Of a stretch of 64,000 bases of DNA, positions 4,425-26,146 are shown one piece after another. The stretch comes from Patescibacteria group bacterium (GTDB taxonomy: Bacteria > Patescibacteriota > Microgenomatia > UBA8517): positions 151,751 through 215,750 of the forward strand of contig JAHJHG010000009.1 in assembly GCA_018823885.1 (NCBI GenBank), in the 5' to 3' direction. The position numbers and the translations under genes are program-made. Below the pieces are notes generated by a model. The model made no database searches, had not been told where the DNA came from, and worked only from the letters and a program-made list of their open reading frames with translations. Positions within the stretch are counted from its first letter, which is position 1. Every line of letters starts with the position of its first letter.

Positions 4425-4434
4425 TCCCAGATGG

Positions 4435-4544
4435 TCAGCCCAATTAGGCACCCTAGCGACCCAGGTGTCTAGAATAACCCGGAAGTTTTTGTTAAAACGC
4501 CAGTTAAAACCTCAAACATTCGTACCACATCCTCACTGTCCGGA
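4435..4544. repeat. Copy A of a ~108-bp direct repeat family (GGCACCCTAGCGACCCA...AAACATTCGTACCACA...CCGGA)
   Basis: Roughly 80% identical by eye to 20853-20960. Shares both ends with 19300-19408. Same orientation in all copies. Confidence 0.6.
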
Positions 4545-4586
4545 AATTTCTATTAAAAATGGTAAAATTGATCGAAACAATCAATA

Positions 4587-7556
4587 ATGATGGAAAATAC
4601 TGTTAAAAACTATATTCAGTCAATCTCCTCAAAATTCTCTTACGAGGAAACTAGCGAGATGGGGTATCGTACTGATTTTGAAATATTGCTTAAAGAAATT
4701 TTCAAATCAATCAAGGTTACTCGCTTTGATCATGATGCGAGAGCCAGACAGGGCAATAAACCGGATTTTGTTGTAGTTAACAATAGCGTGCCTATTTTGT
4801 ATATAGAAACGAAAGATATTGGAAAGTCTCTAGATAAAGTTGAGAAATCAGAACAAATGACCAGATATTTTGGGTATGCCAATCTTGTTCTCACAGATTA
4901 CACAGAGTTTCGTTTTTACAGAAACGGTATTAATTATGGTGAGCCAATAAAAATTGCGGATTATGATATAAAAGATCGAACAATCACTCCGAACCCGAAA
5001 AATTATGAATACCTAGCAAAAACCCTACTTGATTTTACTAAGTCCCACAAAGAACCAATCCGTTCGGGTAAGCACCTTTCAAGAATTATGGGTGGCAAAG
5101 CTCAGAGAATTCGTGATAACACACGCCACTTTTTCTCCAATGGGTCGAAAAAAGATACAGATCTTGTCAAATTGTTTGAAACCTTTAAAAAACTTCTCTT
5201 ACATGATCTGACACCAGACTCTTTCGCTGACATGTATGCACAGACTCTTGTATATGGTCTTTTTGTCGCGCGCTATCACGATAAAACACTTGGTAATTTT
5301 TCAAGACAAGAAGCTCGTGAGCTCATCCCAAATTCCAATCCTCTTTTGCGTCACTTTTTCGATCATATAGTTGGAGCAGATTTTGATAAACGACTTAAAT
5401 ACATTGTTGATGAGTTGTGTGAGGTATTCTCACATGCCGACGTAGCCAAACTCATGGAGGAATATTTCAAGGAAGATTCCCAAAATGGACAAAAAGGCCC
5501 AGATCCAGTTATCCATTTTTATGAGGATTTTTTAAAGAAGTATGATCCAGATTTAAGAAAAAAGATGGGAGCTTACTACACTCCACAACCTATTGTGCAA
5601 TTTATCGTTTGCTCAATCGACTATTTACTCAAAAAAGAATTCGGACTTTCAACTGGCCTTGCTGATACTTCAAAAACGACAGATAATATTCATCGCGTTC
5701 AGATTCTTGATCCGGCAGTGGGAACAGGAACATTTATCAGTGCAGTTATCAGAACAATTTATAAGAGACTATTAAAAAAAGGGCAAAAGGGACGATGGCC
5801 TGCATATGTCCACAATGACTTGCTTCCACGCCTGCACGGTTTTGAGATAATGATGGCTCCATATACAATAGCCCATTTAAAATTAGGTATTGATTTTAGA
5901 AAGACTGGATTTTGGGATTTCCATCGTCGTTTGGGTATTTATCTTACTAATTCACTAGAGGAAAGTAGTATCCAACAGCAAGATTTATTTGCATTTGGTT
6001 TGGCAGAAAGTATCGCTGAAGAATCAAAAGAGGCATCAGTCATTAAGAACAAAACTCCAATTATGGTTGTAATTGGCAATCCACCTTATAGTGTTAGTTC
6101 ATCAAATGTAAATGCATATACAAAGAAATTAATAGAAGTATATAAAAGAGGCTTAAATTTAAGAAATACACAACCGTTATCTGATGATTATATTAAGTTT
6201 ATAAGATTGGCTGAAGTTTTAATAAATAAAAATAAAAGTGGAATAGTTGCGTATATTTCAAACAGATCTTTCTTGGAGGGTATTATCCATAAATCAATGA
6301 GAGCGTCACTTCTTGGTTCGTTTGATGATATATACATTGTTGACTTAAACGGTGATGCGACAATCAATCAAACAAGAGATAATCCTGATAATGATCAAAA
6401 TGTTTTTGATATAAAACAAGGTGTAGCAATATCAATTTTTGTGAAAAAGGTAAATAGTGTTACAGAGAAAAAATTAAATTATTTTAGTGTTCGTGGCAGT
6501 CGATTATCAAAGTTTGATTTTTTAAGTAGCACAAAATTAAGTGATATTGATTTTTCTGAACTCCAACCAAATTCAGAATTCAATTTTTTTGTTGAAAAAG
6601 ACTTAACTAATGATGAGTACGTAAAATTTATTTCTCTAGACGAAATATTTAATGTCCATTCAAGTGCAATAGCAACATCTGATGATAACAACTTGGTATC
6701 GTTTACAAAAAGAGACGAATATAAAATCCCGTTTTCGTACAGACCCTTTGATCAGAGATATATCAATTATGATTTGAAGAAAGTAAAAGGTAATCGTTAT
6801 AATCGTTTGGTTAAATTTTTAATAAATGAAGAATTTAGTGAACTTTTTGAAAATATAAGTTTGGCTTGCTCAAAAAATATCACAACAGAAAGTTTCTCTA
6901 GTGTTTTAGCTAGTAAATCACTTATTGAAAGGAAGTTTTGTGATTATTCAAGAGGCCCACATGTTTTTCCTCTTTACATATACAATGGCAAGGAATCACG
7001 TATCTCAAATGTGAACAATAATTTTACTGCTAATGTATCTCGAATAGTTGGTGATGTATATCCTGAAGATATTTTTGATTATATTTATGCAGTTTTATAC
7101 TCACCCAGCTACCGTGAGGAATACAGGGAATTTTTGAAAATTGATTTTCCAAGAATTCCATATCCTAAGAATAAAGAAGGTTTTAAAAAACTTGTTTCGC
7201 TCGGAAACGAATTAAGAGCACTTCATTTACTGGAATCGTCGAAGTTGAATCAATTCATTACTACTTATTCTATTGATGGGTCTAATATTGTAGAAGAAAC
7301 AAATTACCAAAATGGGAATGTTCGTATCAATGAAAATCAATATTTTGGGAATGTTCCAGAAATAGCCTGGAATTTTCATATCGGCGGGTATCGACCAGCT
7401 CAAAAATGGCTAAAAGATCGCAAAGGTCGAAAATTAATCAATAAAGACCTTGAACATTATCAGAAAATAATTGTTGTTTTGGTAGAGACGGTAAAGATTA
7501 TGGAAGAGATAGATAAATTTTACAATTTGGTAATAAGTTCCTCAAAAAGCCAATGA
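4587..7556 (+). CDS. Type IIG restriction-modification enzyme (fused PD-(D/E)xK endonuclease, gamma-class N6-adenine methyltransferase and C-terminal specificity domain; MmeI/Eco57I-like)
   Basis: N-terminal PDFVVV...ILYIETKD (PD...ExK). GAYYTPQPIV (Eco57I-family MTase signature). DPAVGTGTF (motif I). NPPY (motif IV). A long C-terminal domain ends in the GGYRPAQKWLKDRKG box typical of this family. Confidence 0.75.
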   Translation: MMENTVKNYIQSISSKFSYEETSEMGYRTDFEILLKEIFKSIKVTRFDHDARARQGNKPDFVVVNNSVPILYIETKDIGKSLDKVEKSEQMTRYFGYANLVLTDYTEFRFYRNGINYGEPIKIADYDIKDRTITPNPKNYEYLAKTLLDFTKSHKEPIRSGKHLSRIMGGKAQRIRDNTRHFFSNGSKKDTDLVKLFETFKKLLLHDLTPDSFADMYAQTLVYGLFVARYHDKTLGNFSRQEARELIPNSNPLLRHFFDHIVGADFDKRLKYIVDELCEVFSHADVAKLMEEYFKEDSQNGQKGPDPVIHFYEDFLKKYDPDLRKKMGAYYTPQPIVQFIVCSIDYLLKKEFGLSTGLADTSKTTDNIHRVQILDPAVGTGTFISAVIRTIYKRLLKKGQKGRWPAYVHNDLLPRLHGFEIMMAPYTIAHLKLGIDFRKTGFWDFHRRLGIYLTNSLEESSIQQQDLFAFGLAESIAEESKEASVIKNKTPIMVVIGNPPYSVSSSNVNAYTKKLIEVYKRGLNLRNTQPLSDDYIKFIRLAEVLINKNKSGIVAYISNRSFLEGIIHKSMRASLLGSFDDIYIVDLNGDATINQTRDNPDNDQNVFDIKQGVAISIFVKKVNSVTEKKLNYFSVRGSRLSKFDFLSSTKLSDIDFSELQPNSEFNFFVEKDLTNDEYVKFISLDEIFNVHSSAIATSDDNNLVSFTKRDEYKIPFSYRPFDQRYINYDLKKVKGNRYNRLVKFLINEEFSELFENISLACSKNITTESFSSVLASKSLIERKFCDYSRGPHVFPLYIYNGKESRISNVNNNFTANVSRIVGDVYPEDIFDYIYAVLYSPSYREEYREFLKIDFPRIPYPKNKEGFKKLVSLGNELRALHLLESSKLNQFITTYSIDGSNIVEETNYQNGNVRINENQYFGNVPEIAWNFHIGGYRPAQKWLKDRKGRKLINKDLEHYQKIIVVLVETVKIMEEIDKFYNLVISSSKSQ

Positions 7557-7844
7557 GGTACCAAGGTTGACTGGAGGCTCTTTTAGCGGAATGGACCAGT
7601 TGTATTTTGCTCACAAAAACCTTCTGTTAAAGAAAGTTAGGCAGCGAGAAAATAGCAGAAATATGGAAATAACGACACAAGCTAAAGATGGCTATGAACA
7701 ACGTATTGGTTGGATAGAATTTAAAAACAAGGTAATGACAAAAGAGAAAATTCTATTGTACAACTGGTTGCTTTAACAAAGAGCTGGAACGATGGGGGAA
7801 GCAGGTGATCATTATTATGAAGGCACTTGGCAGATGGTTTGAAA

Positions 7845-9203
7845 TCATGAAACCTTTTGTTTAAGGTGGGCCAATAAAGCTTTTTTCTTGTTTGGAATTT
7901 TCTTTTCTTCAACTTCTTCAAAAAGTTGTTCTAATATTTCTCCTACTTTTGGTCCAGGTTTTAAGTTTAATTCCTTCATGACATCATTTCCTGATATTTT
8001 TAGATCATGAATGGTGAATGGTTGTTTTTGAACTTCAATTATTCTTTTTTTGAATTCTTCTAATCTCCACGAGGTTTCTCTGGCTCCACCACCCAGTCTG
8101 TCTCCTACTCTTAAATCAATCATGTCTTTAATGTTTTCTTTACCTACATTTTTAATAAATCTTCTTATTGCTTTGTCCGTTTGTTTTTCATCAACAGTGA
8201 ATTGATGCCACTGAACAAGAGTGATTAGCTTTTCTGATTGTTTTTTTGATAATTTCAATCTTTCAGCTATTCTTTTGGCAATCCTGGTACTGACAACCTC
8301 ATGGTTATAGAAAGTAATTGTTCCATTTTCTAGTTTTCTGTATGTTTGCGGCTTGCCAATATCATGAATTAAAGTAGCGAACCTAACGATAGGGTCAGTG
8401 CTTTTACAATGTTTTAGAGAAAGGAAACTATGCGTACCAACGTCATGAACGTGGTGTCTGCCCGGTGATTTTTGTTCTACGCCAAAAGTTTTTTCAAGTT
8501 CAGGAAGAATTTCTTCCAACAATCCAACTTCTCTAAAGATAATCATGCCTTCATATGGATTAGTAGAGGCAAGAATTTTAATTAATTCATCTTTTGCTCT
8601 TTCTTTGGCTATCTTGTTAATGAGTGGGGCATTTGTTTTTATTGCTTCGAGTGTTTCCTTTTCAATTTTAAAATTAAGTTCTGTGGCAATTCTCACTGCC
8701 CTCATCATACGCAGGGCATCTTCCGAGAATCTTTCTGAAGCTTCTCCCACGGCTCTAATGAGTTTCTTTTCTAGGTCTTTTTGACCATCGTAGGGATCAA
8801 TAAGTTCATACTCATCTTTCTTGCCCTTTTTTCTTTTAAGAGCCATGGCATTGATGGTGAAATCACGTCTTTTAAGGTCTTCTTCTAGTGTTTTTCCCCA
8901 AACGACCTTGTCTGGACGACGCTTGTCTGTATAGCCTGATTCGTGCCTAAAAGTGGTTATTTCATACGGATGGGGCGATGATTCATGACTAATACCGACA
9001 GTACCGAAGGTATTGTCATAGAAACCGTCTGGAAAAATCTTAAGAATCTCTTTTGGAGTAGCGTTGGTGGTGAAATCCCAGTCTTCAGCGCTCTTTTTCG
9101 TCAATAAATCACGCACGGCTCCTCCTACAAGATATATTTCAAATTCTGCTTTCTCGAATTTTTTTAGAATTTCTAATACGAATTTTGGTAGCTGGACATC
9201 CAC
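7845..9203 (-). CDS. cca: CCA-adding tRNA nucleotidyltransferase with HD domain
   Basis: LVGGAVRDLL, a DxD nucleotidyltransferase core, RRDFTINAMA and a C-terminal HD domain (HDIGK). The ORF track extends to 9476, but that 90-aa hydrophobic extension overlaps recJ on the other strand. An in-frame GTG at 9203, 9 nt after a TATAAT box, is the more likely start. Confidence 0.7.
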   Translation of the reverse strand: MDVQLPKFVLEILKKFEKAEFEIYLVGGAVRDLLTKKSAEDWDFTTNATPKEILKIFPDGFYDNTFGTVGISHESSPHPYEITTFRHESGYTDKRRPDKVVWGKTLEEDLKRRDFTINAMALKRKKGKKDEYELIDPYDGQKDLEKKLIRAVGEASERFSEDALRMMRAVRIATELNFKIEKETLEAIKTNAPLINKIAKERAKDELIKILASTNPYEGMIIFREVGLLEEILPELEKTFGVEQKSPGRHHVHDVGTHSFLSLKHCKSTDPIVRFATLIHDIGKPQTYRKLENGTITFYNHEVVSTRIAKRIAERLKLSKKQSEKLITLVQWHQFTVDEKQTDKAIRRFIKNVGKENIKDMIDLRVGDRLGGGARETSWRLEEFKKRIIEVQKQPFTIHDLKISGNDVMKELNLKPGPKVGEILEQLFEEVEEKKIPNKKKALLAHLKQKVS

Positions 9204-9237: not shown

Positions 9238-10920
9238 ATGAATACCCAAACTAAAAAATGGGAGGTATTAAACAAATTACCTAAGGGTAAAAAGAAAATT
9301 ACCAGTAATGATATTATTAACACTCTTCTTAAGAGTCGAGGGATAACAACCCCCGAAAAAAGAAAAGAATTCTTCAATCCGGTCCTGCCTGAAAAAATTA
9401 CCTTACGCACCTTGGGACTCAGCAAGGTGGCTGTTGAAAAGGGGATAGCGAGGATAAAGAAGGCCAAAAAGAACAAAGAAAAGATTATTGTCTATGGAGA
9501 TTATGATGCTGATGGCATAACCGGTACAGCTATTCTCTGGGAAACTCTTTTTGCCTTTGATAAAGAAACACTTCCATATATCCCTGACCGGTTTACTGAA
9601 GGATATGGTTTAAATCCCAAAACTATTATTAAGTTAAAAGAGGAATATCCCAATTTAGGATTAATAATCAGTGTTGATAATGGTATTGTGGCCAATAAAG
9701 CGGTCACTAAGGCCAATAAGCTAGGAATGGATGTCATTATTACCGACCATCACAAAAAAGCAAAAACAATTCCTAAAGCACTAGCCATCATTCACACAAC
9801 TGAGATCGGTGGAGCGGCCGTTGCCTGGGTTTTTGCCAGAGAGATTAGGAAAAAACTTCGAATGCCGAAATCTGAGTTTAAAATGGGAGACGGATTGGAT
9901 TTGGCCGCGATAGGAACAATTGCCGATCAAATTTCTTTACTAGGCTCAAATCGTTCTTTTGTGAAATATGGCTTGAGAGCTTTAAACAAAACTATTCGAC
10001 CCGGATTACTTTCTCTTTTTAAAGAAGCAGCTATTAAGAGAGGAGCGATTGGTACTTATACGGTTGGTTTTATTGTTGCCCCAAGAATTAATGCTATGGG
10101 TAGACTTGAACATGCGATGGATGCTTTAAGACTTCTTTGCACAAAAAAAAGAGTTCAAGCAGAAGAGTTTGCTCATTTTTTGGGAAAAACTAACAACGAA
10201 AGACGAAAAATAGTTGATGAAGTAACTATTCATGCAACCGAGGCCGTTAAGGAGACAATGGAAACATCAATCCTTGTTGTTCATGAAAGTTATCATGAGG
10301 GTGTCATTGGGCTTGTTGCTTCCCGTTTAGTGGAAACATTTTACAAACCAACCATTGTCATTTCTCGAGGAAAAGAAATTTCTAAGGCTTCTGCCCGTTC
10401 AATTCCGGGATTTAATATCATTGATGCGATTAGAAACCTGGATAAATTAACCATTGAGGCGGGAGGTCACCCAATGGCGGCTGGGTTTAGTATCAAGACA
10501 AGCAATATAGATAAATTTACTAAGGAATTTGAGAAAGAAACAAAACTTGCGTTAAACGGGGAACTATTAACAAAAAAATTAAAAGTGGACATGGAATTGG
10601 GTTTTGATTTGTTGAGTAAAGAATTAGCGGAGATAATTTCAACTTTTGAACCAACCGGAACAGGGAATTATGCTCCGGTTTTTGCGACCAAAGGAGCAAC
10701 GGTTATTGAAGCAAGGGTTGTCGGCAAAACAGGTACACATCTAAAGTTAAAGTTGCAAGAAAACGACAAGATACTTGATACGATTGCTTTTGGCTTTGGC
10801 CACTTGTCTCCTAAACTTTCTTTGGGAAGCCTTGTTGATGTTGCTTATAATCTAGAAGAAAATGAGTGGAACGGTAGGAAGAGTTTGCAGCTCAATGCAA
10901 GGGATATAAGAATAAAATGA
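9238..10920 (+). CDS. recJ: Single-stranded-DNA-specific exonuclease RecJ
   Basis: DHH family motifs (IVYGDYDADGITG, ITDHH), DHHA1 and a C-terminal OB-like region. ATG at 9238 is preceded by AGGAGAA. The ORF track begins earlier, at 9064. Confidence 0.85.
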   Translation: MNTQTKKWEVLNKLPKGKKKITSNDIINTLLKSRGITTPEKRKEFFNPVLPEKITLRTLGLSKVAVEKGIARIKKAKKNKEKIIVYGDYDADGITGTAILWETLFAFDKETLPYIPDRFTEGYGLNPKTIIKLKEEYPNLGLIISVDNGIVANKAVTKANKLGMDVIITDHHKKAKTIPKALAIIHTTEIGGAAVAWVFAREIRKKLRMPKSEFKMGDGLDLAAIGTIADQISLLGSNRSFVKYGLRALNKTIRPGLLSLFKEAAIKRGAIGTYTVGFIVAPRINAMGRLEHAMDALRLLCTKKRVQAEEFAHFLGKTNNERRKIVDEVTIHATEAVKETMETSILVVHESYHEGVIGLVASRLVETFYKPTIVISRGKEISKASARSIPGFNIIDAIRNLDKLTIEAGGHPMAAGFSIKTSNIDKFTKEFEKETKLALNGELLTKKLKVDMELGFDLLSKELAEIISTFEPTGTGNYAPVFATKGATVIEARVVGKTGTHLKLKLQENDKILDTIAFGFGHLSPKLSLGSLVDVAYNLEENEWNGRKSLQLNARDIRIK

Positions 10921-13886: not shown

Positions 13887-14833
13887 AATCTCTTCTAGGT
13901 GGAAATCGTAATCTATTATTTTTGTCTCTATTTTCATTTGTTTTTATAGCATCAAGCGCACTTGCTATTTCAAAAGGACAGGAAATATATTTGGAGAAGA
14001 AAGCAACTGTTTCAAAATCCTTTACCCCAATCCCTGTTTTGTCTGAAGAAGCAGGCTTTCCGGTTCTTTCCGCCCAGGCGGCTTTAGCAATTGATATTGG
14101 TTCGGGAATAACTCTTTATGAAAAGAATCCGGAAAAACCTTTACTTCCGGCTTCTACTACAAAAATTGTTACGGCCCTTGTCGCTATGGATTATTATCCA
14201 ATGGATACGATTATCAAGGTAGGCAGAGTAAATATTGAAGGGCAGAAAATGGGTCTGGTTCAAGGAGAAGAGATAACAGTCCAAGATTTGCTTTATGGTC
14301 TTCTGATTTACAGCGCCAATGATGCGGCAGAAGTTTTGGCGGTCAACTTTCCGGGCGGAAGAGAAATGTTTATCACAGCCATGAATTTAAAGGCAAGTCA
14401 GTTACATTTGGAAAATACTTCTTTTTCAAATCCCTCAGGGCTTGACGGAAACGGGCATCACTCAACGGCAAAGGATTTAATTAGAGTGGCGGAAGTGGCT
14501 ATGAGAAAACCCGCATTTCGGGAGATAGTGGCTATCAGAGAAAAAGAGGTTGCCAGTGTTGACGGAAAAATAAAACACAAACTAGTAAATATAAATGAGT
14601 TGTTGGGAAAAGTTGAAGGGGTTTTGGGAGTAAAAACAGGCTGGACGGAAAGCGCCAGAGAAAACTTGGTTACTTACATTGAGAGGGATGGGAAGAAAAT
14701 CATGATTGTTTTGCTTTCAAGCCAAGACAGGTTTGGAGAAACAGAAGAGCTTATCAACTGGATATTTGAAAATTATGAATGGCAGGAAGTGAAACTGTCT
14801 TTTGAAGAAATTATTCTCCGTAGTAATCACTAG
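13883..14833 (+). CDS. D-alanyl-D-alanine carboxypeptidase (peptidase S11, PBP5-like)
   Basis: Signal peptide. SxxK (ASTTK), SxN (SANDAA) and KTG (KTGWT) motifs present. Confidence 0.75.
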   Translation: MKSLLGGNRNLLFLSLFSFVFIASSALAISKGQEIYLEKKATVSKSFTPIPVLSEEAGFPVLSAQAALAIDIGSGITLYEKNPEKPLLPASTTKIVTALVAMDYYPMDTIIKVGRVNIEGQKMGLVQGEEITVQDLLYGLLIYSANDAAEVLAVNFPGGREMFITAMNLKASQLHLENTSFSNPSGLDGNGHHSTAKDLIRVAEVAMRKPAFREIVAIREKEVASVDGKIKHKLVNINELLGKVEGVLGVKTGWTESARENLVTYIERDGKKIMIVLLSSQDRFGETEELINWIFENYEWQEVKLSFEEIILRSNH

Positions 14834-15857
14834 TCACTGCCGGTACGTAAGCTGAGAATCCTCTGTCTCCCTCAAAGACGATGATTGGTTGGTAAAATTC
14901 TGCTGAGACTCCCCCATCATAATAGGCGAGATAGACACGTCTGATAACAATATTGCTTTCGTTATCGACGCCTTGACTGGCAATAAATGCATTTCCAGCT
15001 TTAAGTTCTTCCCAGGCGGATTCGGCGAGTTTGATGGGATAAGTTGCGGATTTATCTTCGTCTACTGGGAAGTAATGAAATTCAGAGGCAATAATTTGTT
15101 TTTCCCGTTCTCTCGATCCGCTAACCATAAACCAAGTGTTGGCTTGACTCGGATTTGGTGTAAGGCTGGGGAAATTATCATAACTTTTTCTAAAAAGGTA
15201 GACCTTAACCAAGTCAGCTTCGGAAAGTGAAACTGCGTTGGCGAAACTTCCCTCCTCTATTTTAAGGAATTGGTGAGTGGTCGGGCCGGTTAAATCTACT
15301 GGCAAAAGGTTTGCAGAAGAAAGATATGACCTAATTTGAGATGCGGCTATTTCAGGTGAAGGCGGTCTTTGCTCTATTGGAGAAGAATCTTTAGATAAAT
15401 CATAACTAATAGAGAAAATGCCATTAATAATGTTCATATCTAAAGTTGAAGGTGCTCTTTGATGTTTAAAACGATAGAGTGTTTGGGAAACTTGTTCTCC
15501 GCTAGGGATAAAACCGAGATTAGTCGCTTTATCTTTCGCCAGCTCTAAGTTTAATTGGGTTTGAACAGGTTTTGGCATAAAGTATACCTTGGCCTGAGTT
15601 GAGAGAACGGGAATACTTCCTTCAGGCGTTTCAAGAGTATAACTAGGGTTTCCAGCAACTTCTTTTTTTGGGAAGGGAATCTTTGGTAATTTTCCAAAGG
15701 CAACTGTTGGCGGAGGAGGCGGTTCTGGGAAGAAGTGTCGATAAACACTAATACTTGTAGAGAGGGCAATTTTTCCGATAATTAAGGCAATCACCCCATA
15801 AAGGCCGTATCTTATTATTTTCCTGGTCATAATTGCAGTTTGAGTCAATGAGGCCAT
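14811..15857 (-). CDS. Hypothetical membrane-anchored secreted protein
   Basis: N-terminal TM helix, then a Pro-rich stretch (PEPPPPPT). 348 aa. No recognised domain. Convergent with the carboxypeptidase gene, 23-nt overlap. Confidence 0.5.
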   Translation of the reverse strand: MASLTQTAIMTRKIIRYGLYGVIALIIGKIALSTSISVYRHFFPEPPPPPTVAFGKLPKIPFPKKEVAGNPSYTLETPEGSIPVLSTQAKVYFMPKPVQTQLNLELAKDKATNLGFIPSGEQVSQTLYRFKHQRAPSTLDMNIINGIFSISYDLSKDSSPIEQRPPSPEIAASQIRSYLSSANLLPVDLTGPTTHQFLKIEEGSFANAVSLSEADLVKVYLFRKSYDNFPSLTPNPSQANTWFMVSGSREREKQIIASEFHYFPVDEDKSATYPIKLAESAWEELKAGNAFIASQGVDNESNIVIRRVYLAYYDGGVSAEFYQPIIVFEGDRGFSAYVPAVTSDYYGE

Positions 15858-18889: not shown

Positions 18890-19201
18890 TTGAACATGGA
18901 GAGAAATTTTGGGGGAGTAGTTTGGACAAATCATGCCTTGAAAAGATTAACAGAAAGAAATATTTCTCAGGGTGATGCTTGGGCAGCCTTCAGGCGTCCA
19001 GAGCAATCAGAGTATGCGAAAGCAAAAGGTGCCTGGATATATTACAAAACCTATGGGAATCAAAGAATTGAAGTTGTTGCCAAGCAAAATGAAAAAAAAG
19101 AATGGATAATTCTTTCTGTTTGGTCAAGGCAAGTTTTCAAAAAAACAAAAAAAATGGATTCTCTTGCAAAACTGCTTTGGAAGAGAATTTTTAAGAAATA
19201 G
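18890..19201 (+). CDS. DUF4258-like small protein (putative BECR-fold toxin-like RNase domain)
   Basis: WTNHALKRLTERNIS matches the DUF4258 signature (TxHAxxRMxERxI). 103 aa. No adjacent partner gene recognised. Confidence 0.5.
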   Translation: MNMERNFGGVVWTNHALKRLTERNISQGDAWAAFRRPEQSEYAKAKGAWIYYKTYGNQRIEVVAKQNEKKEWIILSVWSRQVFKKTKKMDSLAKLLWKRIFKK

Positions 19202-19231
19202 CCTTATCTTTGGTATAATAGGGTTCTTCAA

Positions 19232-19302
19232 TGCGGGATGGTGTAATGGTAGCACGCTGCTCTCTGGAAGCAGAGATTGGGGTTCGAGTCCCTGTCCCGC
19301 AG
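19232..19302 (+). tRNA. tRNA-Gln (anticodon CUG)
   Basis: Manual cloverleaf: acceptor TGCGGGA/TCCCGCA with U1:A72 (typical of bacterial tRNA-Gln). D-stem GTGT/GCAC. Anticodon stem CTGCT/AGCAG with loop CTCTGGA. T-arm TGGGG-TTCGAGT-CCCTG. Discriminator G. CCA not encoded. Confidence 0.85.
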
Positions 19303-19408
19303 CTAGTTTGGGCACCCTATTGACCCATATGCCTCGAAAAGCCCATGTTTCTCTTCAAAACTATCGATCATACTCCCAAACATTCGTACCACACCCTCAG
19401 CTTCCGGA
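19300..19408. repeat. Copy B of the ~108-bp direct repeat family, immediately 3' of tRNA-Gln
   Basis: TTGGGCACCCTATTGACCCATATG...CCAAACATTCGTACCACACCCTCAGCTTCCGGA. Its ends align with copies A and C. Confidence 0.55.
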
Positions 19409-19452
19409 TTTAATACCCCAATTTCCATTGTTGTGTTAAAATCGGAATAAAT

Positions 19453-20352
19453 ATGGCGGATTTCAAAATAACTCTGATTCTTGGAACTGAACTGGCAGGC
19501 ATAAGAAATCTTATTGATCAACTCGAAGGCTTGCATTTCGGAATATTAATAAATAGCCTCAGATGGGAAAGTCAAATCGAAGGAGAAAAAAGAAAAAAAG
19601 AATACTATAAATCGATAAAGGAAAATGTAATAAAGATTAACAAAAGAATAAAAGACTTCAATATTCTTCTAAAAAGAGCATTTGATACCAAATACTACAC
19701 GTTCAGAAAACTTGAACAAATAAAATTAAGTAGTCTGGATAAAATAATTAAGGAACACCGTGGTGAATTTCCTCGTAACAAAAAGGAAGAAAGTTACATA
19801 AAATATGTAATGGCTGAAGACAGCTCACCTTCTTCCCTCGCTAGAAAACACACTTCTGTTCTCCTAAGTAACGCTCTCCTTCCGACCAAGTTGTCTATTT
19901 CAAATTTCGCAAAGGGATTTGACAAGCTTTACGAACCGTTTGGTGATTATAATAGTTTAAATATCCGTTCTAAAACTATTAACGACATCACAAAGGCTGA
20001 AGTTTGTTATACAAACGGGTTGGCAGAAGAAGCTGTTTTCATCCTCGGCAGGACAGTCGAGAGATTGTCAATAGATTGTCTAAAACATCTAAAAAAATTA
20101 GGTAGAGTAAATAAAACTTATAGTGAAATTGACGAGCTCAATTTTGAAAACAGTATTAACTTACTCTCAAGTCCTAAAATAAAAGTTTTTAGAAAAGATC
20201 AAAAACCCAAAGCTCTCGCATTAAAGTGGGATAGAAACATTTATGGACACAAACGATCTTCACCCTCAAAAATGAAGGAGAAAGACATGGATTCCATGAT
20301 TAAAATAGGTATTAATATAATTGAAAGATTAGAAAAAAAATTAAGAAGCTAG
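19453..20352 (+). CDS. Hypothetical protein with a C-terminal HEPN-like Rx4H motif (Abi/DUF4145-like)
   Basis: 299 aa. C-terminal ALKWDRNIYGHKRS fits the HEPN Rx4-6H motif. The helical region before it is predicted by eye. No other domain recognised. Confidence 0.4.
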   Translation: MADFKITLILGTELAGIRNLIDQLEGLHFGILINSLRWESQIEGEKRKKEYYKSIKENVIKINKRIKDFNILLKRAFDTKYYTFRKLEQIKLSSLDKIIKEHRGEFPRNKKEESYIKYVMAEDSSPSSLARKHTSVLLSNALLPTKLSISNFAKGFDKLYEPFGDYNSLNIRSKTINDITKAEVCYTNGLAEEAVFILGRTVERLSIDCLKHLKKLGRVNKTYSEIDELNFENSINLLSSPKIKVFRKDQKPKALALKWDRNIYGHKRSSPSKMKEKDMDSMIKIGINIIERLEKKLRS

Positions 20353-20371
20353 GAATACTGAGACAAATCGT

Positions 20372-20806
20372 GTGTACATGACTATTGGGGATCAAATAAA
20401 GGAAAATTTCTACAGAATAGCCTCATCACTGGCTCCTAATCCCGTTGTAAAACGTGTTATACCAGAAAAATTGAAAAATTATCATGTAGTATGGGACGCT
20501 GAAACAGTAGAAGAACTCTCAACCGGTAAAAAAATTTCACGAGATAACTGGGCGCGAAAGAAAGCGAAAATCAATGGCTTCTATGACGATTTTTTGAAAG
20601 GGAATATCGAAAAGACCCAGATACTTGTAGTAAAAGATTTGGATAATCCAACTATGTTGATTGTTGATGGTATTCATAGGTCAGTGGGTTTTTATACGGC
20701 TTACCTCGAAAATCCAGAAATTGCTTCAAAAACAGATTTCACATATAAACTTTTTGAGTCAAATAAAATAAGAAAGATGTATGATTACAAAAGGTTATTT
20801 AGTTAG
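20372..20806 (+). CDS. Hypothetical protein with a ParB/sulfiredoxin-like motif
   Basis: QILVVKDLDNPTMLIVDGIHRSVGFYTAYL resembles the ParB N-terminal / Srx motif (xxVDGxHRxxA). 144 aa. Lies 19 nt downstream of the previous gene. Confidence 0.4.
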   Translation: MYMTIGDQIKENFYRIASSLAPNPVVKRVIPEKLKNYHVVWDAETVEELSTGKKISRDNWARKKAKINGFYDDFLKGNIEKTQILVVKDLDNPTMLIVDGIHRSVGFYTAYLENPEIASKTDFTYKLFESNKIRKMYDYKRLFS

Positions 20807-20852
20807 AGTTCTATGGTTTAAATTATAAGGACTAGAGAGGCCTAAGCCCACA

Positions 20853-20960
20853 AGCTCAGCCAAATTGGGCACCCTAGCGACCCATGTGCTAAGAATAACC
20901 CGAAAGTTCTTGCTTAACCTCCGTATTATTTCCAAAACATTCAGTTTACAATGCTGAACC
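20853..20960. repeat. Copy C of the ~108-bp direct repeat family
   Basis: TTGGGCACCCTAGCGACCCATGTGCTAAGAATAACCCGAAAGTTCTTG...AAACATTCAGTTTACA. About 80% identical by eye to copy A. Confidence 0.6.
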
Positions 20961-20974
20961 TCACATTTTAGTGT

Positions 20975-21823
20975 TTAGAGGTTTGAAGAGATGATTTTGA
21001 AGCAGTCACCTGTTGAAACACCCAATCCATACTGAAATCCGTCTCCCTGGCTTTCACTGGAAGAAATCGGTAAATTGATCTCAAAAGCACTTCCGGGCTC
21101 GAATTCATATTCTGGACCAAGAACTGCAGGATTAATAGTCAACAAAGGAAGTTTTTTGTTAGGAAATACGGGCGACAAACTAAGGGTGATATATTTGTCT
21201 AAAGGAGCGTCACTCACAGATCTTTCAAATGTAACCTCATCATCATTGCGGTCACGAAGACGAATAGTGTTTAAATCTCCATCAAAAACATTGATTCTAT
21301 AAAAGGAGTCAGGAACGTCATTACTTTTATCTCCATAACTGATAAAAAAGGTTGGATTTTTATTGTTATCTGTTTTGTCTTTTAATGAGAAAGTTATGGA
21401 AACCTCTCTGTCAACTAAATATTTATTTGCAGTCCACATAACCCATGAGGGAAAAGCGGGGTTCTTGGGGGGGCAATAAAATCCCTCTTTATCAGGTGTC
21501 ATTCCACTTGCAAATAACCAGTTTACGATATCAAAACTTTTACCCAGCTCATTGCCAAATTCTCCCTCGTCGCTTACTGATAAAGTGGAGCCAGTCTCGC
21601 TAGTAATAACTGTTTGACTTTGTTTTTGAACATTTGAATTTTGTACTTGAAAATCAGACCTCAAGCTAGCTATGTGCGTGTTTGCAGTATTAATTGCTGC
21701 AAAGTAGGAGAAAAGCCCTGTTATCAGGGCTGGTATAATCGCGATAAACCATCGCGAGTTTATTAACTTCCGAATTTTTACTGACCACTTATTCTTTGAA
21801 CTTTTGGGGGCAGTGTTTTTCAT
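20975..21823 (-). CDS. Hypothetical membrane-anchored exported protein
   Basis: 282 aa with an N-terminal TM helix (WFIAIIPALITGLFSYFAAI). No recognised domain. Confidence 0.5.
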   Translation of the reverse strand: MKNTAPKSSKNKWSVKIRKLINSRWFIAIIPALITGLFSYFAAINTANTHIASLRSDFQVQNSNVQKQSQTVITSETGSTLSVSDEGEFGNELGKSFDIVNWLFASGMTPDKEGFYCPPKNPAFPSWVMWTANKYLVDREVSITFSLKDKTDNNKNPTFFISYGDKSNDVPDSFYRINVFDGDLNTIRLRDRNDDEVTFERSVSDAPLDKYITLSLSPVFPNKKLPLLTINPAVLGPEYEFEPGSAFEINLPISSSESQGDGFQYGLGVSTGDCFKIISSNL

Positions 21824-22159
21824 TTATCTCCAATATATTTTTACCTCGAAGAGTCCTTTCTTGAATTCTTCGAAATTACTTTTAACATTGTCGGAAAGAG
21901 TCCAGAGTTTATCTCTATCACCAGTCAATCTAATCAGAATTTCATTTCGAAGTAATCCACTGAGTGTGGCGCCAATGGACTTTCCATACTCTTCAGAGTC
22001 AGTAGAAAGGTAAGACTTTACGTAAGGACGGAAAACTTTAGCAAAATCTGAACTTGAAAAACTGAAGTTTTTTTCGCTAGAATCCTTCATTCTCAAAATG
22101 GCCCATAAGGCTACTTGTTGAGAAAGTGGAAAGGATGTTACCGTGTTTTTTATGTCCAT
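21824..22159 (-). CDS. Hypothetical small protein (possible regulator), first gene of a two-gene minus-strand operon
   Basis: 111 aa. Abuts the downstream gene with no gap. No confident motif. Confidence 0.4.
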   Translation of the reverse strand: MDIKNTVTSFPLSQQVALWAILRMKDSSEKNFSFSSSDFAKVFRPYVKSYLSTDSEEYGKSIGATLSGLLRNEILIRLTGDRDKLWTLSDNVKSNFEEFKKGLFEVKIYWR

Positions 22160-22267
22160 AGCTCATAAGTATACCATAGAACCACAAGCAAAACAAGTAC
22201 TGTTACCATGACCTCTCTTTTAGCCTCAACTGTGGTACACTCAGAGTAATTGGTTATGGGCTCGAAA

Positions 22268-22350
22268 GGTTCTAGACCGACATGCTCAATTATCTCGGAA
22301 TCAGAACCCCAGGCACGACATCCAGTTATGGGACTGGAAGGGTCTAGACC
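22268..22350. promoter_or_regulatory. Pair of palindromic operator-like sites (GGTTCTAGACC at 22268-22278 and a perfect GGTCTAGACC at 22341-22350), each followed by a (C/G)ATGCTCA-like half-box
   Basis: 10-bp perfect palindrome. The extended motif R-G-K-TCTAGACC-N3-RKGCTCA recurs at 23808-23818 and 23855-23864. Confidence 0.3.
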
Positions 22351-22438
22351 AGAGAGCTCAGCAAAGATTTTTAGTCTCTGTTTTACGGTAAAAGTCAAAA
22401 AATATATTTTCAATATTTGCTATAATTAACATAACAGT

Positions 22439-22831
22439 ATGCAAAGTGAATGGTATCAGCAACTAATTAGACCATCATGGTCACCGCCTTCTTGGCTTTT
22501 TGGCCCAGTTTGGACTTTTCTATATCTATTAATTGTTGTTTCCTTTTTTAAAGTATTTCAATTAACTTTTCAAAAAAGAATCTCATTTATTATCGCTCTC
22601 CCGTTTATTCTTAATCTCATTTTTAACTTCGCATTTACTCCTTTACAATTTGGGTTAAGAAGCAATATCCTGGCGGCCATTGACATTCTTCTTGTCCTGA
22701 TCACTCTTGTCTGGGCGATGAAGGCAATCTATCCTCATGCAAAATGGATTACTTATATCCAAATCCCATATTTGTTGTGGGTTAGTTTTGCGACTGTTTT
22801 GCAGTTAGTCATTACTTATTTAAACCGTTAA
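22439..22831 (+). CDS. tspO: TspO/MBR-family tryptophan-rich membrane protein (short)
   Basis: WYQQLIRPSWSPPSWLFGPVWTFLY matches the TspO N-terminal signature (W..L.KP.W.PP..F.PVW..LY). Four predicted TM helices. 130 aa is short for the family. Confidence 0.55.
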   Translation: MQSEWYQQLIRPSWSPPSWLFGPVWTFLYLLIVVSFFKVFQLTFQKRISFIIALPFILNLIFNFAFTPLQFGLRSNILAAIDILLVLITLVWAMKAIYPHAKWITYIQIPYLLWVSFATVLQLVITYLNR

Positions 22832-22832
22832 G

Positions 22833-23225
22833 ATGTTTTTAAAAGCATATTTAATCACCCTGCCAGTTTTTTTGGCAATCGACTTGGTTTGGCTCAGTCT
22901 AATCGCCAGGAAATTTTACGCTCAATACCTGGGTTATTTGATGAAGGCAAACGTCAATTTTATAGCAGCCGGTCTATTTTACTTACTGTTTGTGGTTGGC
23001 TTAGTGGTTTTCTCAGTTTTACCGGCTTTGGAGAAGAACTCTTGGACCCAGGCTCTTTTTTTAGGAGCTCTGCTTGGATTTGTATCTTACGCCACCTATG
23101 ATTTGACAAACTTAGCCACTATTAAAGACTGGCCGTTGATAGTCACGATTGTGGATATGCTTTGGGGGACAGTCTTGGGGGCTTCAGTCTCTCTGGTTAG
23201 TTATTTTATTGTCACAAAAATTTAA
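22833..23225 (+). CDS. Small integral membrane protein (DUF2177-like)
   Basis: 130 aa with four hydrophobic helices. Begins 2 nt after the tspO stop. Confidence 0.4.
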   Translation: MFLKAYLITLPVFLAIDLVWLSLIARKFYAQYLGYLMKANVNFIAAGLFYLLFVVGLVVFSVLPALEKNSWTQALFLGALLGFVSYATYDLTNLATIKDWPLIVTIVDMLWGTVLGASVSLVSYFIVTKI

Positions 23226-23306
23226 AAAGTTCCAATATCGCCCCACATTCTCAGCAAAAATTATATTATCTGCTATAATTTCCCCAGATTTTGCTCGGGA
23301 ATAAAG

Positions 23307-23780
23307 ATGCCATATTATTATGTTATTAAAGGTCATACGTATGTTGGAGGGCGGGAGGTTATACATGAGGTGCTCGATCGTCGTATTTCTTTTTTGGAAA
23401 AATTGAAAGTGGGCAGAAGAGAATACGGCCTTTTTGGCTCTAAGGAAGTGGAATTAGAAGTTGATAGTCACGATAGAGTGAGAGTTACAGCCCTTAGAGA
23501 TACAACCTTAATCTTAAAAATTCACGAAGAAAATCCAGATCAGGAGGATGTTGTTGATTTAAACCATCCTCTTGTCCCAATAGGTAGTGAGTCAGGCGGA
23601 AACCAAGAATATAAAGCAATTAGATTGACAAAAGGTTCTCAGCTTGCTTTATATAGAACCTCCTTTATGGTTGGAAATAAAACTGATAGACAGATTAGGT
23701 GGGCTTCAAGCGATGACGGCTTTCAAGATGAATTATTTTCGGAATTTTGTATAAAAACACTTAATGAAGGTGGTTTTTAG
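23307..23780 (+). CDS. Hypothetical soluble protein
   Basis: 157-aa ORF. No motif recognised. Confidence 0.4.
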   Translation: MPYYYVIKGHTYVGGREVIHEVLDRRISFLEKLKVGRREYGLFGSKEVELEVDSHDRVRVTALRDTTLILKIHEENPDQEDVVDLNHPLVPIGSESGGNQEYKAIRLTKGSQLALYRTSFMVGNKTDRQIRWASSDDGFQDELFSEFCIKTLNEGGF

Positions 23781-23807
23781 AATAATAACACTATTAGATT
23801 CTAGACC

Positions 23808-23864
23808 CACTCGTTTAACTTGCTGGGAATAGACTGTAAGTAAGGGATCAAGTAGTTCTAGACC
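23808..23864. promoter_or_regulatory. Second pair of TCTAGACC palindromic sites (ATTCTAGACCC at 23808-23818; GTTCTAGACC plus TGTATGCTCAGCC at 23855-23877)
   Basis: Same extended motif as at 22268-22350. Lies between convergent genes. Confidence 0.3.
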
Positions 23865-23898
23865 TGTATGCTCAGCCACATAACACACTGAGGATTTT

Positions 23899-24324
23899 TT
23901 AGCTAAACTCCTGCGCTAGCCACTTTTTAAATTTCTCTTTTCTTTCACCTTCTAAAACAGAATCTATTGTTTTTATTATTTCAATTACAAAGTTTGAATA
24001 TTCTTTTGATAGTTTTTCACCAAGGTACTCCTCACCCAATATCTCCTCGATCTTTTTAAGAGTTTCTAATGCCTCCTCAATCTCAATTTTCTTTTCTCCC
24101 TCTTGATCAAACAAGTTTTTTATTTGATCTTTTTTTATCTGGTCAAGCTGAGTATCTGAAAGAATTTCAGAAAAAACATTCGTGAAAAATTTCTCTTGGA
24201 GTTGATTGTTGAGTTTGGTTTTCGCCTCATCGTCACTAGCTGCCAAATCAACGAATACGGTAAGTAGCTTAATTACTGAATTATAAAAGCTTTTAGGTTT
24301 GTTATCCATTTTACTATTTCTCAA
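23899..24324 (-). CDS. Hypothetical acidic coiled-coil protein
   Basis: 141-aa ORF. Distal gene of a two-gene minus-strand operon. Confidence 0.4.
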   Translation of the reverse strand: MRNSKMDNKPKSFYNSVIKLLTVFVDLAASDDEAKTKLNNQLQEKFFTNVFSEILSDTQLDQIKKDQIKNLFDQEGEKKIEIEEALETLKKIEEILGEEYLGEKLSKEYSNFVIEIIKTIDSVLEGERKEKFKKWLAQEFS

Positions 24325-24786
24325 TCACTCTCTCGCTTGAAGCCATTTTTTTACGTCCTTTTCGGCACTTTTCATCATTTTGTGATGCTTAATATCTTCT
24401 GCCACATTTTTTACTAGATTGGCAGAATACTCACCAGTCATAGCTCCTAGACCCCCAATAAGTCCTACTCCCAGCGTCGTCAATGGAAATATAATCAAAG
24501 CAAACGCACCCCCTCTCGTACCTGCATGAACAATTTCTTCAAATATCTCAGGTTTTACGAGAGTGCCGTGAATCACTGCTCCTGCGGAAGCGATAATTCC
24601 TCCTACCAACTTGGCTTTCTCTATAACATCTTCACTGATTACGTCTTCTTTAAATCTTGTGTACCAATCTTTATTAAACACTTTTTCGCTCAGAGCTTTT
24701 CGAACTTGTTCACGATTTTCTCCAATAAAATCTTCTGGTATTATATGTTCAGGGATTTCAGTAAATTCTTTAGAATTAATATTCAT
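24325..24786 (-). CDS. Hypothetical protein with a Gly-rich membrane-associated segment
   Basis: 153 aa. GGIIASAGAVIHG...LGVGLIGGLGAMTG hydrophobic Gly-zipper-like region. Confidence 0.4.
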   Translation of the reverse strand: MNINSKEFTEIPEHIIPEDFIGENREQVRKALSEKVFNKDWYTRFKEDVISEDVIEKAKLVGGIIASAGAVIHGTLVKPEIFEEIVHAGTRGGAFALIIFPLTTLGVGLIGGLGAMTGEYSANLVKNVAEDIKHHKMMKSAEKDVKKWLQARE

Positions 24787-24915
24787 TTCTTCACTTGACT
24801 TAATATCAACATTTTACTATACAGATGAAATAGAAACAATCTAGTTACGTATTAAGTTCGAAAATCATCAATTAGTCTCAGCCAAATTGAATGTCTAAAT
24901 TAAGAAAAGGATTAT

Positions 24916-25197
24916 ATGACAACAGAAGATAGAGAAATTCAAAATTTACTACCTGAAGCAAAGGAGTTTGTTCACGAAGTTAAAGATGGGGTACATAAAT
25001 ATGCAAATAGAGAATATGGGCATGCTGCCAAAAACCTCGCACTCATATTAGACGGGTGTGCTGAAGAAGGTGTTTCTCGGGAAACCCAAAGAATATTAAT
25101 GAAAGAGTTTATAGAAAGACAAATAGAAGAATTTGGTCCAAACATAATTGATTTTTTAAGAGATGAGTTAAAACTTGTAATAGAGAATGAAGATTAA
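24916..25197 (+). CDS. Hypothetical small acidic protein
   Basis: 93-aa ORF 21 nt upstream of the SET-domain gene. Confidence 0.35.
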   Translation: MTTEDREIQNLLPEAKEFVHEVKDGVHKYANREYGHAAKNLALILDGCAEEGVSRETQRILMKEFIERQIEEFGPNIIDFLRDELKLVIENED

Positions 25198-25218
25198 AGG
25201 CAGCAAATAATTGGGGGT

Positions 25219-25715: not shown

Positions 25716-25973
25716 TTGCTAAAATGTATTGTGTTTACTGTATATATCTTAAGAACCGATAAGAACACTCTTTATACGGGGCAAACCAAAGACCTTGTGG
25801 CTCGCCTAGGAAAACATACATTAGGAAAGGGAGCAAAATACGTAAGAGGATTTAAATCTTTTGAGTTGGTTTACACAGAAAAATTTAAAACTCGTTCAGA
25901 AGCCTTAAAGCGAGAGCATGAGTTAAAGAAATTATCAAAACAAGAAAAAGAAAATCTAATAGCTGCCCTATAG
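25716..25973 (+). CDS. GIY-YIG nuclease superfamily protein (YhbQ/UPF0213-like), paralog of 4122-4424
   Basis: VYILRTDKNTLYTGQTKDLVARLGKH and the C-terminal RSEALKREHELK. Begins 5 nt after the SET gene stop. Confidence 0.7.
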   Translation: MLKCIVFTVYILRTDKNTLYTGQTKDLVARLGKHTLGKGAKYVRGFKSFELVYTEKFKTRSEALKREHELKKLSKQEKENLIAAL

Positions 25974-26146
25974 TTTCTTGACAAATGTTTTTAATCTGTT
26001 ACACTGACATCTGTTCCGTTAACTCGGAACCAAAGACTGTTTTTTTAATTTGATTTAAGTCGGTAAGTAAGGGTACCCCAGAAACTACTTTTAACACGTA
26101 TCTTTCCTTCAAACACTTGCATTCCCATTAATATAAGCAGTTTCGT

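Follow-up and report, generated by a model that had tools for sequence, protein, structure and literature searches.

A repeat family anchored at tRNA-Gln in Microgenomates: candidate att-type junctions of an accessory gene cassette array

In a 64-kb stretch of Patescibacteria contig JAHJHG010000009.1 (assembly GCA_018823885.1, forward-strand positions 151,751 to 215,750), designated hereafter as the window, a tRNA-Gln gene is preceded by genes encoding GluRS, two proteins without known identity (321 and 108 amino acids, aa) and a DUF4258 protein, and is followed by a variable island reaching to a SET-domain gene (Table 1). A repeat unit of ~110 nucleotides (nt), named R, starts at the very 3' end of this tRNA and recurs in the window, where the copies away from the tRNA are each preceded by a decayed element resembling the tRNA-Gln 3' end, named psi. 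As argued below, these repeats are probably attachment-site (att)-type junctions in an array of cassettes that has its anchor at the 3' end of tRNA-Gln.

A repeat search retrieved three R copies, all on the plus strand and in the same orientation, namely A (4436-4557), B (19300-19413) and C (20857-20942). The initial annotation of this DNA had described three such copies, and both nhmmer and the count of the 17-nt core GGCACCCTAGCGACCCA, observed three times in the window against 0.01 by chance, bear this out. Ungapped and in register over 110 nt, identity amounts to 71/110 for A-B, 70/110 for A-C and 59/110 for B-C, with pairwise nhmmer E-values of 7e-8, 1e-11 and 1e-4, respectively. The window repeats are real and beyond chance, and the finding of the same arrangement in at least five independent assemblies excludes an assembly artefact. 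Of the ~108 bp previously ascribed to copy C, just the first ~86-96 nt are homologous; it matches A at 65 of 86 positions and then at 5 of 24. Copy C stops at AAACATTC and lacks the 3' motif GTACCACAYCCTCA..TCCGGA common to A and B; it is recovered by the psi2 profile at E=2e-9 and by the R profile at E=5e-16. The three copies form a mosaic, A resembling C in its 5' part and B in its 3' part. The non-tRNA copies are each preceded by ~25-45 nt of tRNA-3'-end-like sequence, a feature absent from the initial annotation, which in turn mentioned a weaker fourth match at 26085-26135 where no profile matches even at E<=1000. Another match, downstream of tRNA-Glu (34663-34696, E=0.085), lies inside an open reading frame (ORF) and was treated as chance.

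Table 1. Features of the repeat-bearing loci, with positions in the window, and the three recurring psi types.
Feature	Coordinates	Strand	Basis and remarks
tRNA-Gln promoter, sigma-70-like	19191-19219	+	TTAAGA-17-TATAAT, with TG; consensus match only
tRNA-Gln(CTG)	19232-19303	+	ARAGORN; Rfam tRNA 61 bits; array head and left half of attB-like site (proposed)
Copy B, full R	19300-19413	+	core CAGCTAGTTTGGGCACC at 19300-19316, then ~95 nt including CAAACATTCGTACCACACCCTCAGCTTCCGGA; nhmmer E=3e-30 against 22-copy profile
Cargo gene 1, 299-aa ORFan	19453-20352	+	RNIYGH motif; 'HEPN-like' of the initial annotation
Cargo gene 2, 142-144-aa ORFan	20372-20806	+	DGIHR motif; 'ParB-like' of the initial annotation
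Copy C	20824-20942	+	psi2 20824-20856 (TATAAGGACTAGAGAGGCCTAAGCCCACAAGCT, tRNA-3'-end-like), core 20857-20873, R cut off after AAACATTC
Variable island, tRNA-Gln to SET-domain gene	19304-25200	.	wholly different content in L033, L050, L051, L063
psi2 with part of upstream extension E, without R	22215-22288	+	nhmmer E=4e-9; boundary after minus-strand genes 20975-22159
psi2 without R	22326-22366	+	nhmmer E=2e-6; 72 nt past the preceding psi2, just upstream of TspO gene
psi2 without R	23840-23880	+	nhmmer E=4e-9; boundary of genes 22439-23780 (+) and 23899-24786 (-)
Copy A	4414-4557	+	psi3 4414-4438 (TTCCAATATAGTCCCAGATGGTCAG), core 4436-4452, full R to ~4557; nhmmer E=8e-27
Type ISP/IIG restriction-modification gene, 989 aa	4587-7556	+	Pfam Type_ISP_C 2e-62, N6_Mtase, Eco57I; directly downstream of copy A
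psi1			starts at anticodon loop (CTGGA...)
psi2			consensus TTATGGGCTCGAAAGGTTCTAGACCGACCTGCTCAGC
psi3			consensus TTCCAATATAGTCCCAGrTGsTCAG

Copy B begins inside the last bases of the tRNA gene, as already recognised, and B together with the psi of C does bracket two genes. Both encoded proteins are without match in Pfam, PADLOC or PDB sequence searches, and the labels 'HEPN-like' and 'ParB-like' formerly given to them come down to short motifs, RNIYGH and DGIHR, which make the HEPN and ParB/Srx identities plausible but unproven. Among 5.8 billion proteins, just three homologues of the 299-aa protein and three of the 144-aa protein were found, and the AlphaFold2 models (mean predicted confidence, pLDDT, of 45 and 54, respectively) are too low for a fold search. 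Since the two genes were never seen to co-occur outside the window, the proposal of a two-gene HEPN plus ParB functional module is not supported. A homologue of the 144-aa gene, 64% identical, is the last gene of a repeat-bounded cassette at another locus (L046), opened by a full R (7894-8041) and closed by a psi2 of copy C's sub-variant; the 144-aa gene keeps its own psi2 variant on its right side in the window, L046 and L049. Neither the B-C module nor any other part of the 64-kb window encodes an integrase, in agreement with the initial annotation. Two ORFans without recombinase domain and flanked by B and C correspond to what defines a cis-mobilizable element (CIME), i.e. att-like flanks with no integrase or transfer genes.

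Copy A lies, as originally noted, between a GIY-YIG gene (4122-4424), the stop codon of which is overlapped by psi3, and the Type IIG restriction-modification (RM) gene; in L032, an R copy is likewise followed by a type IIG RM gene, though a different one. This is a second variable spot of 5.9 kb (1982-7844) between SecF and the convergent gene of a CCA-adding enzyme, holding in the window a DUF433 pair, small ORFs, the GIY-YIG gene, copy A and the RM gene. The window encodes a second GIY-YIG-only protein (25716-25973; 85 aa, against 100 aa for the first), 47.5% identical to the first; it precedes a DEAD-box helicase, likewise in L009, and the first copy alone abuts a repeat. A homing link through GIY-YIG was considered and rejected, copy A alone abutting such a gene and the second paralogue having no repeat.

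Regarding the distribution of R, the loci used for comparison, designated by L numbers, are all metagenomic contigs. Copies were first fished by a scan of databases with two exact motifs, which inflates the apparent conservation of those very blocks, and full R copies were found in this way in three Microgenomates/Patescibacteria metagenome-assembled genome contigs and 16 metagenome contigs; nine of these 16 terminate inside R, as expected of a multi-copy sequence. Profile searches of the fetched loci brought 32 R copies, the family as found comprising 30+ copies in ~25 Microgenomates/Woesebacteria contigs, and copies found by profile alone still keep both motif blocks. Orientation is uniform within every locus, and nine loci (L009, L010, L025, L026, L028, L032, L033, L034 and L036) contain two to three copies each, spaced by 1-5.5 kb. 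R comes directly after a real tRNA-Gln (CTG or TTG) in the window, L029, L033, L034 and L037, and in L051 the real tRNA-Gln is followed by a degenerate partial R; besides these loci, a real tRNA-Gln heads the arrays of L050 and L063. All remaining R copies are preceded, in the same register, by a decayed psi resembling the 3' half of tRNA-Gln. The copies sit between groups of unrelated accessory genes, and the ~9 partial ones all retain the 5', tRNA-side part and lose the distal part. A phage or plasmid origin was rejected, as R, psi3 and the serine recombinase described below have no match in IMG/VR, INPHARED and PLSDB.

Block conservation across many genomes, together with open frames crossing some copies (including a plus-strand frame open through A, B and C), would be expected if R encoded a short peptide, or a structured RNA transcribed together with tRNA-Gln. 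Neither is at all probable. No Rfam match was obtained at the gathering threshold or at E<=10, single-sequence fold z-scores are near 0 on both strands, and RNAalifold on the 22 full copies gave -3.9 (plus strand) and -5.2 (minus strand) kcal/mol with no covarying pair; a structured RNA was rejected on these grounds. Protein coding was likewise rejected, since 1-nt insertions or deletions between the conserved blocks shift the frame, two different frames are used, start codons are lacking, and A and B contain stops in the minus frame. At L063:10459-10518, the serine recombinase ORF as called extends at its 3' end into tRNA-Gln, which lies on the other strand (C-terminus ...WLRGRDSNSD...); similar antisense ORFs, called through the tRNA and R in other loci, are probably gene-calling artefacts.

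Very unlikely, too, though less so, is a regulatory module, in which R would be a promoter, 5' leader, insulator or protein-binding element and the tRNA-like piece a processing signal. What commends it is that in the window R ends 42-44 nt before the start codons of the RM and 299-aa genes, that the first gene past R is co-oriented in ~15 of 19 cases, that the plus strand is G-poor, unstructured and leader-like, and that in some loci R is followed by a separate module resembling a promoter (TTGAAC-17-TATAAT). R itself, however, contains neither a sigma-70-like promoter nor a terminator-like site, and the next start codon is located anywhere from ~0 to >700 nt away; in L033, L034, L039 and L030 the gene past a full, well-conserved copy is on the opposite strand, and the gene facing C is convergent. 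The close relative L050 has no R beside its tRNA-Gln, and the pseudo-tRNA pieces, devoid of a 5' half, cannot fold as RNase P/Z substrates. The promoter or 5'-untranslated-region alternative raised in the initial annotation is not supported, given the lack of a sigma-70 match in R and the variable distance to, and strand of, the next gene. No terminator-like site was found between the tRNA-Gln promoter and the cargo genes of the window.

The promoter-like stretch just mentioned belongs to a second conserved intergenic module, TTGAACNAAATNAYCCNATAAT, which stands between R and the first cargo gene of unrelated cassettes (L025:5303-5324, L032:541-562, L034:7727-7748, L038:340-361, also L063 around 14860-14880) and is absent from the window. 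Its L034 version reads TTGAAC-17 nt-TATAAT, and L025 and L032 share ~190 nt there; the module may be a portable promoter.

Three psi types recur (Table 1), copy C carrying psi2 and copy A psi3, the latter being also found in L028 and at the right end of the recombinase element of L063. Both psi2 and psi3 align in register with the T-arm and acceptor 3' strand of the tRNA at ~60% identity (about 15/24), and are as such mimics and not exact copies. Searched with the psi2 profile, ~200 kb of loci yielded 49 copies, which all have the orientation of R; many are without R. For all this abundance, they are not a ubiquitous element unrelated to cargo boundaries: the four psi2 copies of the window (starting at 20824, 22254, 22326 and 23840) are all confined to the 6-kb stretch from tRNA-Gln to the SET-domain gene, at boundaries between gene groups, and the profile search found none in the ~50 kb of housekeeping DNA of the window.

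Two breakpoints recur in these elements. In at least 12 R-less psi2 copies, homology ends right after GCTCAGC, which is the position of the tRNA 3' end, and at four independent junctions (two in L028, L036:1051 and L032:5079) it is lost right after GGGCAC(C). Between the two lies a ~7-nt stretch that varies among copies (CCAAAT, CTAGTT, CCACAT, CCAAGA), and the layout that follows from this is a left arm, a variable spacer and a right arm. Direct reading of psi3 shows its arms to be an inverted repeat, GGTGCTCA-GCCAAAT-TGGGCACC. Gene linkage switches at the core. The ATP-grasp gene of four loci comes with a degenerate R variant of its own, in which conservation exceeds 85% between ACTTTCTTYGAAAA and the start codon; to the left of this variant, two loci have psi2 and two have psi1. 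Combined with the psi2 variant that accompanies the 144-aa gene, this indicates that psi moves together with its left-hand cargo and R together with its right-hand cargo, the switch occurring at the core.

Other features accompany psi2. A conserved upstream extension E of ~50 nt (TTTTTTATACTGTCTCATTTGTCTCATTTAGCCTCA..TGTGATACACTC.GAGTAAGC) is present in 13 copies (e.g. L009:3086-3141, L026:1439-1384(-), L028:1436-1381(-), L032:~8950-9000, L051:20060-20111), often after a degenerate core, and contains a -10-like TATACT and a direct repeat of GTCTCATTT. Short head-to-tail runs of psi2, with periods of 58 or 72-75 nt, no gene in between and often ATTATCYGGGATTNAGAACCCCAGG as linker, are located at 22254-22366 of the window and at L025:2012-2170 and 849-935, L050:13697-13870, L048:1282-1390 and L035:1146-1037(-); these runs could be empty cassettes or slippage products.

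Relatives retrieved through the conserved 321-aa neighbour protein share the synteny GluRS, 321 aa, 108 aa, DUF4258 and tRNA-Gln, downstream of which the content is wholly different. The comparison of this locus in relatives, as advised in the initial annotation, thus finds different cargo with the same kinds of repeat in L033, L050, L051 and L063. Past tRNA-Gln, L033 carries DUF6932-like and APH-like genes, psi1|R and an ATP-grasp gene; in L050, psi2 copies separate other genes; in L051, the tRNA is separated from an E+psi2+R copy by an 8.4-kb block (BpsA, AdoMetDC, GTP cyclohydrolase I, QueC and others). The more distant relative L053, with neither tRNA-Gln nor island at the locus, is uninformative. 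Across the repeat-bounded loci, the cargo includes two different type IIG RM enzymes, a Phd/ParE toxin-antitoxin, a Ser/Thr kinase, a radical SAM enzyme, a nucleoside deoxyribosyltransferase-like protein, NUDIX, APH-like kinases, ATP-grasp, BtpA, glycosyltransferases and hydrolases; it is accessory and distinct in each genome examined, and Pfam revealed no integrase or transposase among 40 repeat-adjacent proteins. The genes of the L051 block are co-oriented over 8 kb (L051:11882-20015) and comprise BpsA_C, AdoMet decarboxylase, GTP cyclohydrolase I, Vut_1, QueC, a carbamoyltransferase, GT2, PIG-L and KsgA; the block could be a polyamine or 7-deazaguanine pathway carried as cargo.

Such turnover could also result from plain homology, R and psi being passive and RecA-dependent recombination taking place between repeats or flanking genes after DNA uptake, by Campbell-type circle insertion or double crossover and with no dedicated recombinase. 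Several observations are in line with this explanation. The window and L050 are ~96% similar up to the first bases of the tRNA and then similarity collapses, the tRNA allele and everything downstream being different. The L051 tRNA is identical to that of the window save for its T-loop, and is a mosaic. The SecF|CCA spot, which is reduced to 3 nt in the close relative L050 and occupied by a Fic gene in L051, has no detectable repeats at its edges; A, B and C are mosaics of one another; and most loci have no recombinase. Homologous recombination does not, on the other hand, predict breakpoints that recur at the same nucleotide beside unrelated DNA, nor that every partial copy retains its 5' part. 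Copies within a locus, being just 60-75% identical, would be a poor substrate for it, and passive repeats should not stay better conserved across genomes than the adjacent pseudo-tRNA. The insertion in L063, detailed below, is precise, with 7 nt of shared identity, and bears a recombinase. Altogether, portable homology is rather unlikely to account for the repeats, even if the replacement of tRNA alleles, the repeat-less island edges and the A/B/C mosaicism show that homologous recombination clearly also acts, as the main rival or a co-acting process. The tRNA-Gln(CTG) alleles at this same locus (window 19232-19303, L050:12012-12083 and L051:11661-11734) suggest by their differences that the tRNA gene, or its 3' part, was replaced during cassette turnover.

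A precise case of insertion is provided by L063, a close relative of the window (its 321-aa protein is 90% identical), in which tRNA-Gln (10445-10518) is immediately followed by a 4.06-kb element and then by psi3, the core and a full R (14576-14725). This element encodes, on the reverse strand, a 504-aa large serine recombinase (Resolvase 4e-20, Recombinase 2e-16, Zn_ribbon_recom), besides a Rep protein (REP_ORF2-G2P) and three small ORFs. Its left junction reads ...CCCCGCAGCCAA|TCTGTAAAATTGCC and its right junction ...GGTGCTCAGCCAA|ATTGGGCACCCC, CAGCCAA being common to both, and joining the outer halves reconstructs the empty site, that is the uninterrupted tRNA|R of L033, L034 and the window. 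The psi3 at its right end matches that of copy A, and the match extends to bases farther upstream. A second large serine recombinase, 30% identical to that of L063, is encoded beside a psi2 in L046, for which no attL was found. Just upstream on that contig (L046:1-2160) are SduA_C (Shedu), PDDEXK_1 and PycTM-like genes, the psi-bounded region there adjoining a defence island.

Taken together, a repeat family, its anchoring at tRNA-Gln, the turnover of cargo, recurrent breakpoints and one precise insertion of a recombinase-bearing element are what the loci display. Serial site-specific integration at tRNA-Gln is favoured by the register of R after tRNA-Gln or psi, the co-orientation of the copies, the partial copies retaining their 5' part, the recurrent breakpoints, the L063 insertion, the psi3 shared with it, the switches of linkage at the core, the turnover of accessory cargo and the recombinase near a psi2 in L046. 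The proposed site would consist of the acceptor/T-arm 3' strand of the tRNA as left arm, a variable spacer of ~7 nt (CAG-CCAAAT), within which we infer the crossover to occur, and a right arm, TGGGCACC(C), which is the start of R; the tRNA-Gln 3' end with spacer and TGGGCACC would as such be an attB-like site. Integrative elements and cassettes would enter there by site-specific recombination, an incoming element carrying at its distal end a tRNA-3'-end-like half-site (psi1, psi2 or psi3) that mimics the tRNA arm. With each entry, older material, R first, would be displaced away from the tRNA, and repeated rounds would generate the succession tRNA|R - cargo - psi|R - cargo - psi|... in a single orientation.

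Applied to the window, B would be the tRNA|R junction, C a psi2|R junction with an older, truncated R, and A a psi3|R junction now residing in the second variable spot, before the RM gene. The 299-aa and 144-aa genes would constitute an integrase-less cassette of the CIME type, further movement of which would need a recombinase in trans, and we infer that an L063-like recombinase moves such small cassettes. The predicted excised circle joins the psi2 of copy C (...AAGCCCACAAGCTCAGC) to the R of copy B (TAGTTTGGGCACCCTATTGACCC), leaving a predicted empty site in which the tRNA-Gln 3' end is joined to the R of copy C; the predicted attB is the tRNA-Gln 3' end followed by CAGCCAAATTGGGCACCC... 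and the predicted attP is TTCCAATATAGTCCCAGGTGCTCAGCCAATCTGTAAAATTGCCAC. As for the cassette exchange at the tRNA proposed in the initial annotation, cargo turnover, the repeat-bounded 144-aa gene of L046 and the L063 insertion at tRNA|repeat speak for it; the fourth copy and the two-gene functional module are not supported.

Several points weigh against serial site-specific integration. No recombinase is encoded in the window or in ~20 other loci (>50 proteins scanned), and two of ~25 loci have one. The psi elements are just ~60% identical to the real tRNA 3' end, copy A lies 15 kb from the tRNA with no partner repeat at the edges of its island, and the different tRNA-Gln alleles of close relatives point to homologous replacement in addition. 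Neither an excised circle nor an empty-site read was observed, the empty site being a reconstruction from the L063 junctions. The tRNA-side arm that the L063 element itself carries is not R, and R there looks like old tRNA flank. The multiplication of R within arrays has to be supposed, and the apparent conservation of R is inflated by the two-motif fishing. The ~40-50 bp sites that large serine recombinases require do not explain why the distal ~80 nt of R (e.g. CAAACATTCGTACCAC) are so strongly conserved, and a recombination role of R beyond its first ~20 nt can only be presumed.

It is further conceivable, albeit doubtful, that the system is a reversible, integron-like one driven by a large serine recombinase. 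If so, tRNA-Gln|R and psi|R would share their right half and a cassette would stay flanked by an active attB and an active attP, allowing excision or replacement without a directionality factor, with new cassettes always entering beside the tRNA. Read-through from the promoter of tRNA-Gln could then transcribe the array, and all cassettes would have in common, as a module for an accessory factor or for expression, the conserved distal 80 nt of R.

Elsewhere in the window, two tandem paralogues of 340 and 342 aa without Pfam match (57233-59649) have a duplicated upstream region with TTGACA...TATAAT, in which stretches of 51 and 82 nt are 82% and 84% identical, respectively, and the ORF at 41015-41800 contains a 40-nt direct repeat (41348-41387 and 41627-41666, 75% identity).

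Among known systems, the closest parallels are provided by islands inserted at small-RNA genes. In Dehalococcoides, ssrA islands lie in tandem downstream of one small-RNA gene, the 3' end of which recurs as a direct repeat at the boundary of each island (McMurdie et al. 2011, PMC3146451). They rely for integration on a large serine recombinase, the CcrB-like DsiB, whose gene is on the reverse strand beside attL, their integration module includes a ParB-domain protein, extra conserved sequence flanks the repeat, and about half of the islands, devoid of an integration module, are interpreted as cis-mobilizable elements (PMC3146451). The arrays described here resemble them in the tandem units at a small-RNA 3' end, the reverse-strand large serine recombinase near attL in L063, the many units without integration module and the conserved sequence beside the repeat. 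They differ in that the target is tRNA-Gln and not tmRNA, the host is a bacterium of the candidate phyla radiation (CPR), the cassettes, of 1-4 genes and 1-5 kb, are much smaller and almost always without the recombinase, and the repeated unit is ~150 nt (psi + R) instead of 20 bp, its tRNA-like part being a diverged mimic and not an exact copy.

The tycheposons of Prochlorococcus integrate at tRNA genes by means of tyrosine recombinases, carry replication modules and leave ~40-nt partial-tRNA repeats (Hackl et al., bioRxiv 10.1101/2020.12.28.424599). A streamlined genome, a tRNA target, successive entries pushing older elements inward, partial tRNA remnants and accessory or defence cargo are common to both; here, however, serine recombinases alone were seen, most units have none, and a conserved non-tRNA segment of ~110 nt stands at the junction. 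With CIMEs and the accretion arrays of integrative and conjugative or mobilizable elements (ICE/IME), the cassettes share att-like flanks, the lack of integrase and transfer genes and the tandem arrangement at one site; unlike the case of those arrays, we know of no conjugation genes in these genomes, where mobilisation in trans would be hypothetical.

Chromosomal integrons, such as those of Vibrio with their VCR repeats, are alike in having a long conserved repeat (~120-150 nt) between many small co-oriented cassettes, rich in ORFans and toxin-antitoxins, with no recombinase per cassette and a fixed entry point at the head. In contrast to integrons, the head here is the tRNA gene, with no IntI tyrosine integrase or attI upstream of it, several cassettes are reversed, and R has no imperfect palindrome or hairpin of the attC type; no attC-like single-strand hairpin was found in R and psi units, for which DNA and RNA fold z-scores are near 0 and no consensus structure emerges. 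The best reading is a tRNA-anchored, att-bounded cassette array, a known kind of system, here in a CPR lineage.

CPR bacteria (Patescibacteria) have tiny genomes and, to our knowledge, almost nothing is known of how they acquire genes; our literature searches retrieved no account of integrative elements or cassette arrays in Woesebacteria. The locus presented here supplies an entry point defined in sequence (the 3' end of tRNA-Gln with TGGGCACC), a junction signature, psi and R, that can be searched for, and a candidate enzyme, the large serine recombinase of the L063 type; the three together allow the flow of accessory and defence genes in these organisms to be mapped and tested. If the recombinase and its att sites work as proposed, they would make a compact new serine-integrase system with defined attB, attL and attR and, were the integron-like alternative to be true, the array would represent a general route of gene acquisition for genome-reduced CPR bacteria.

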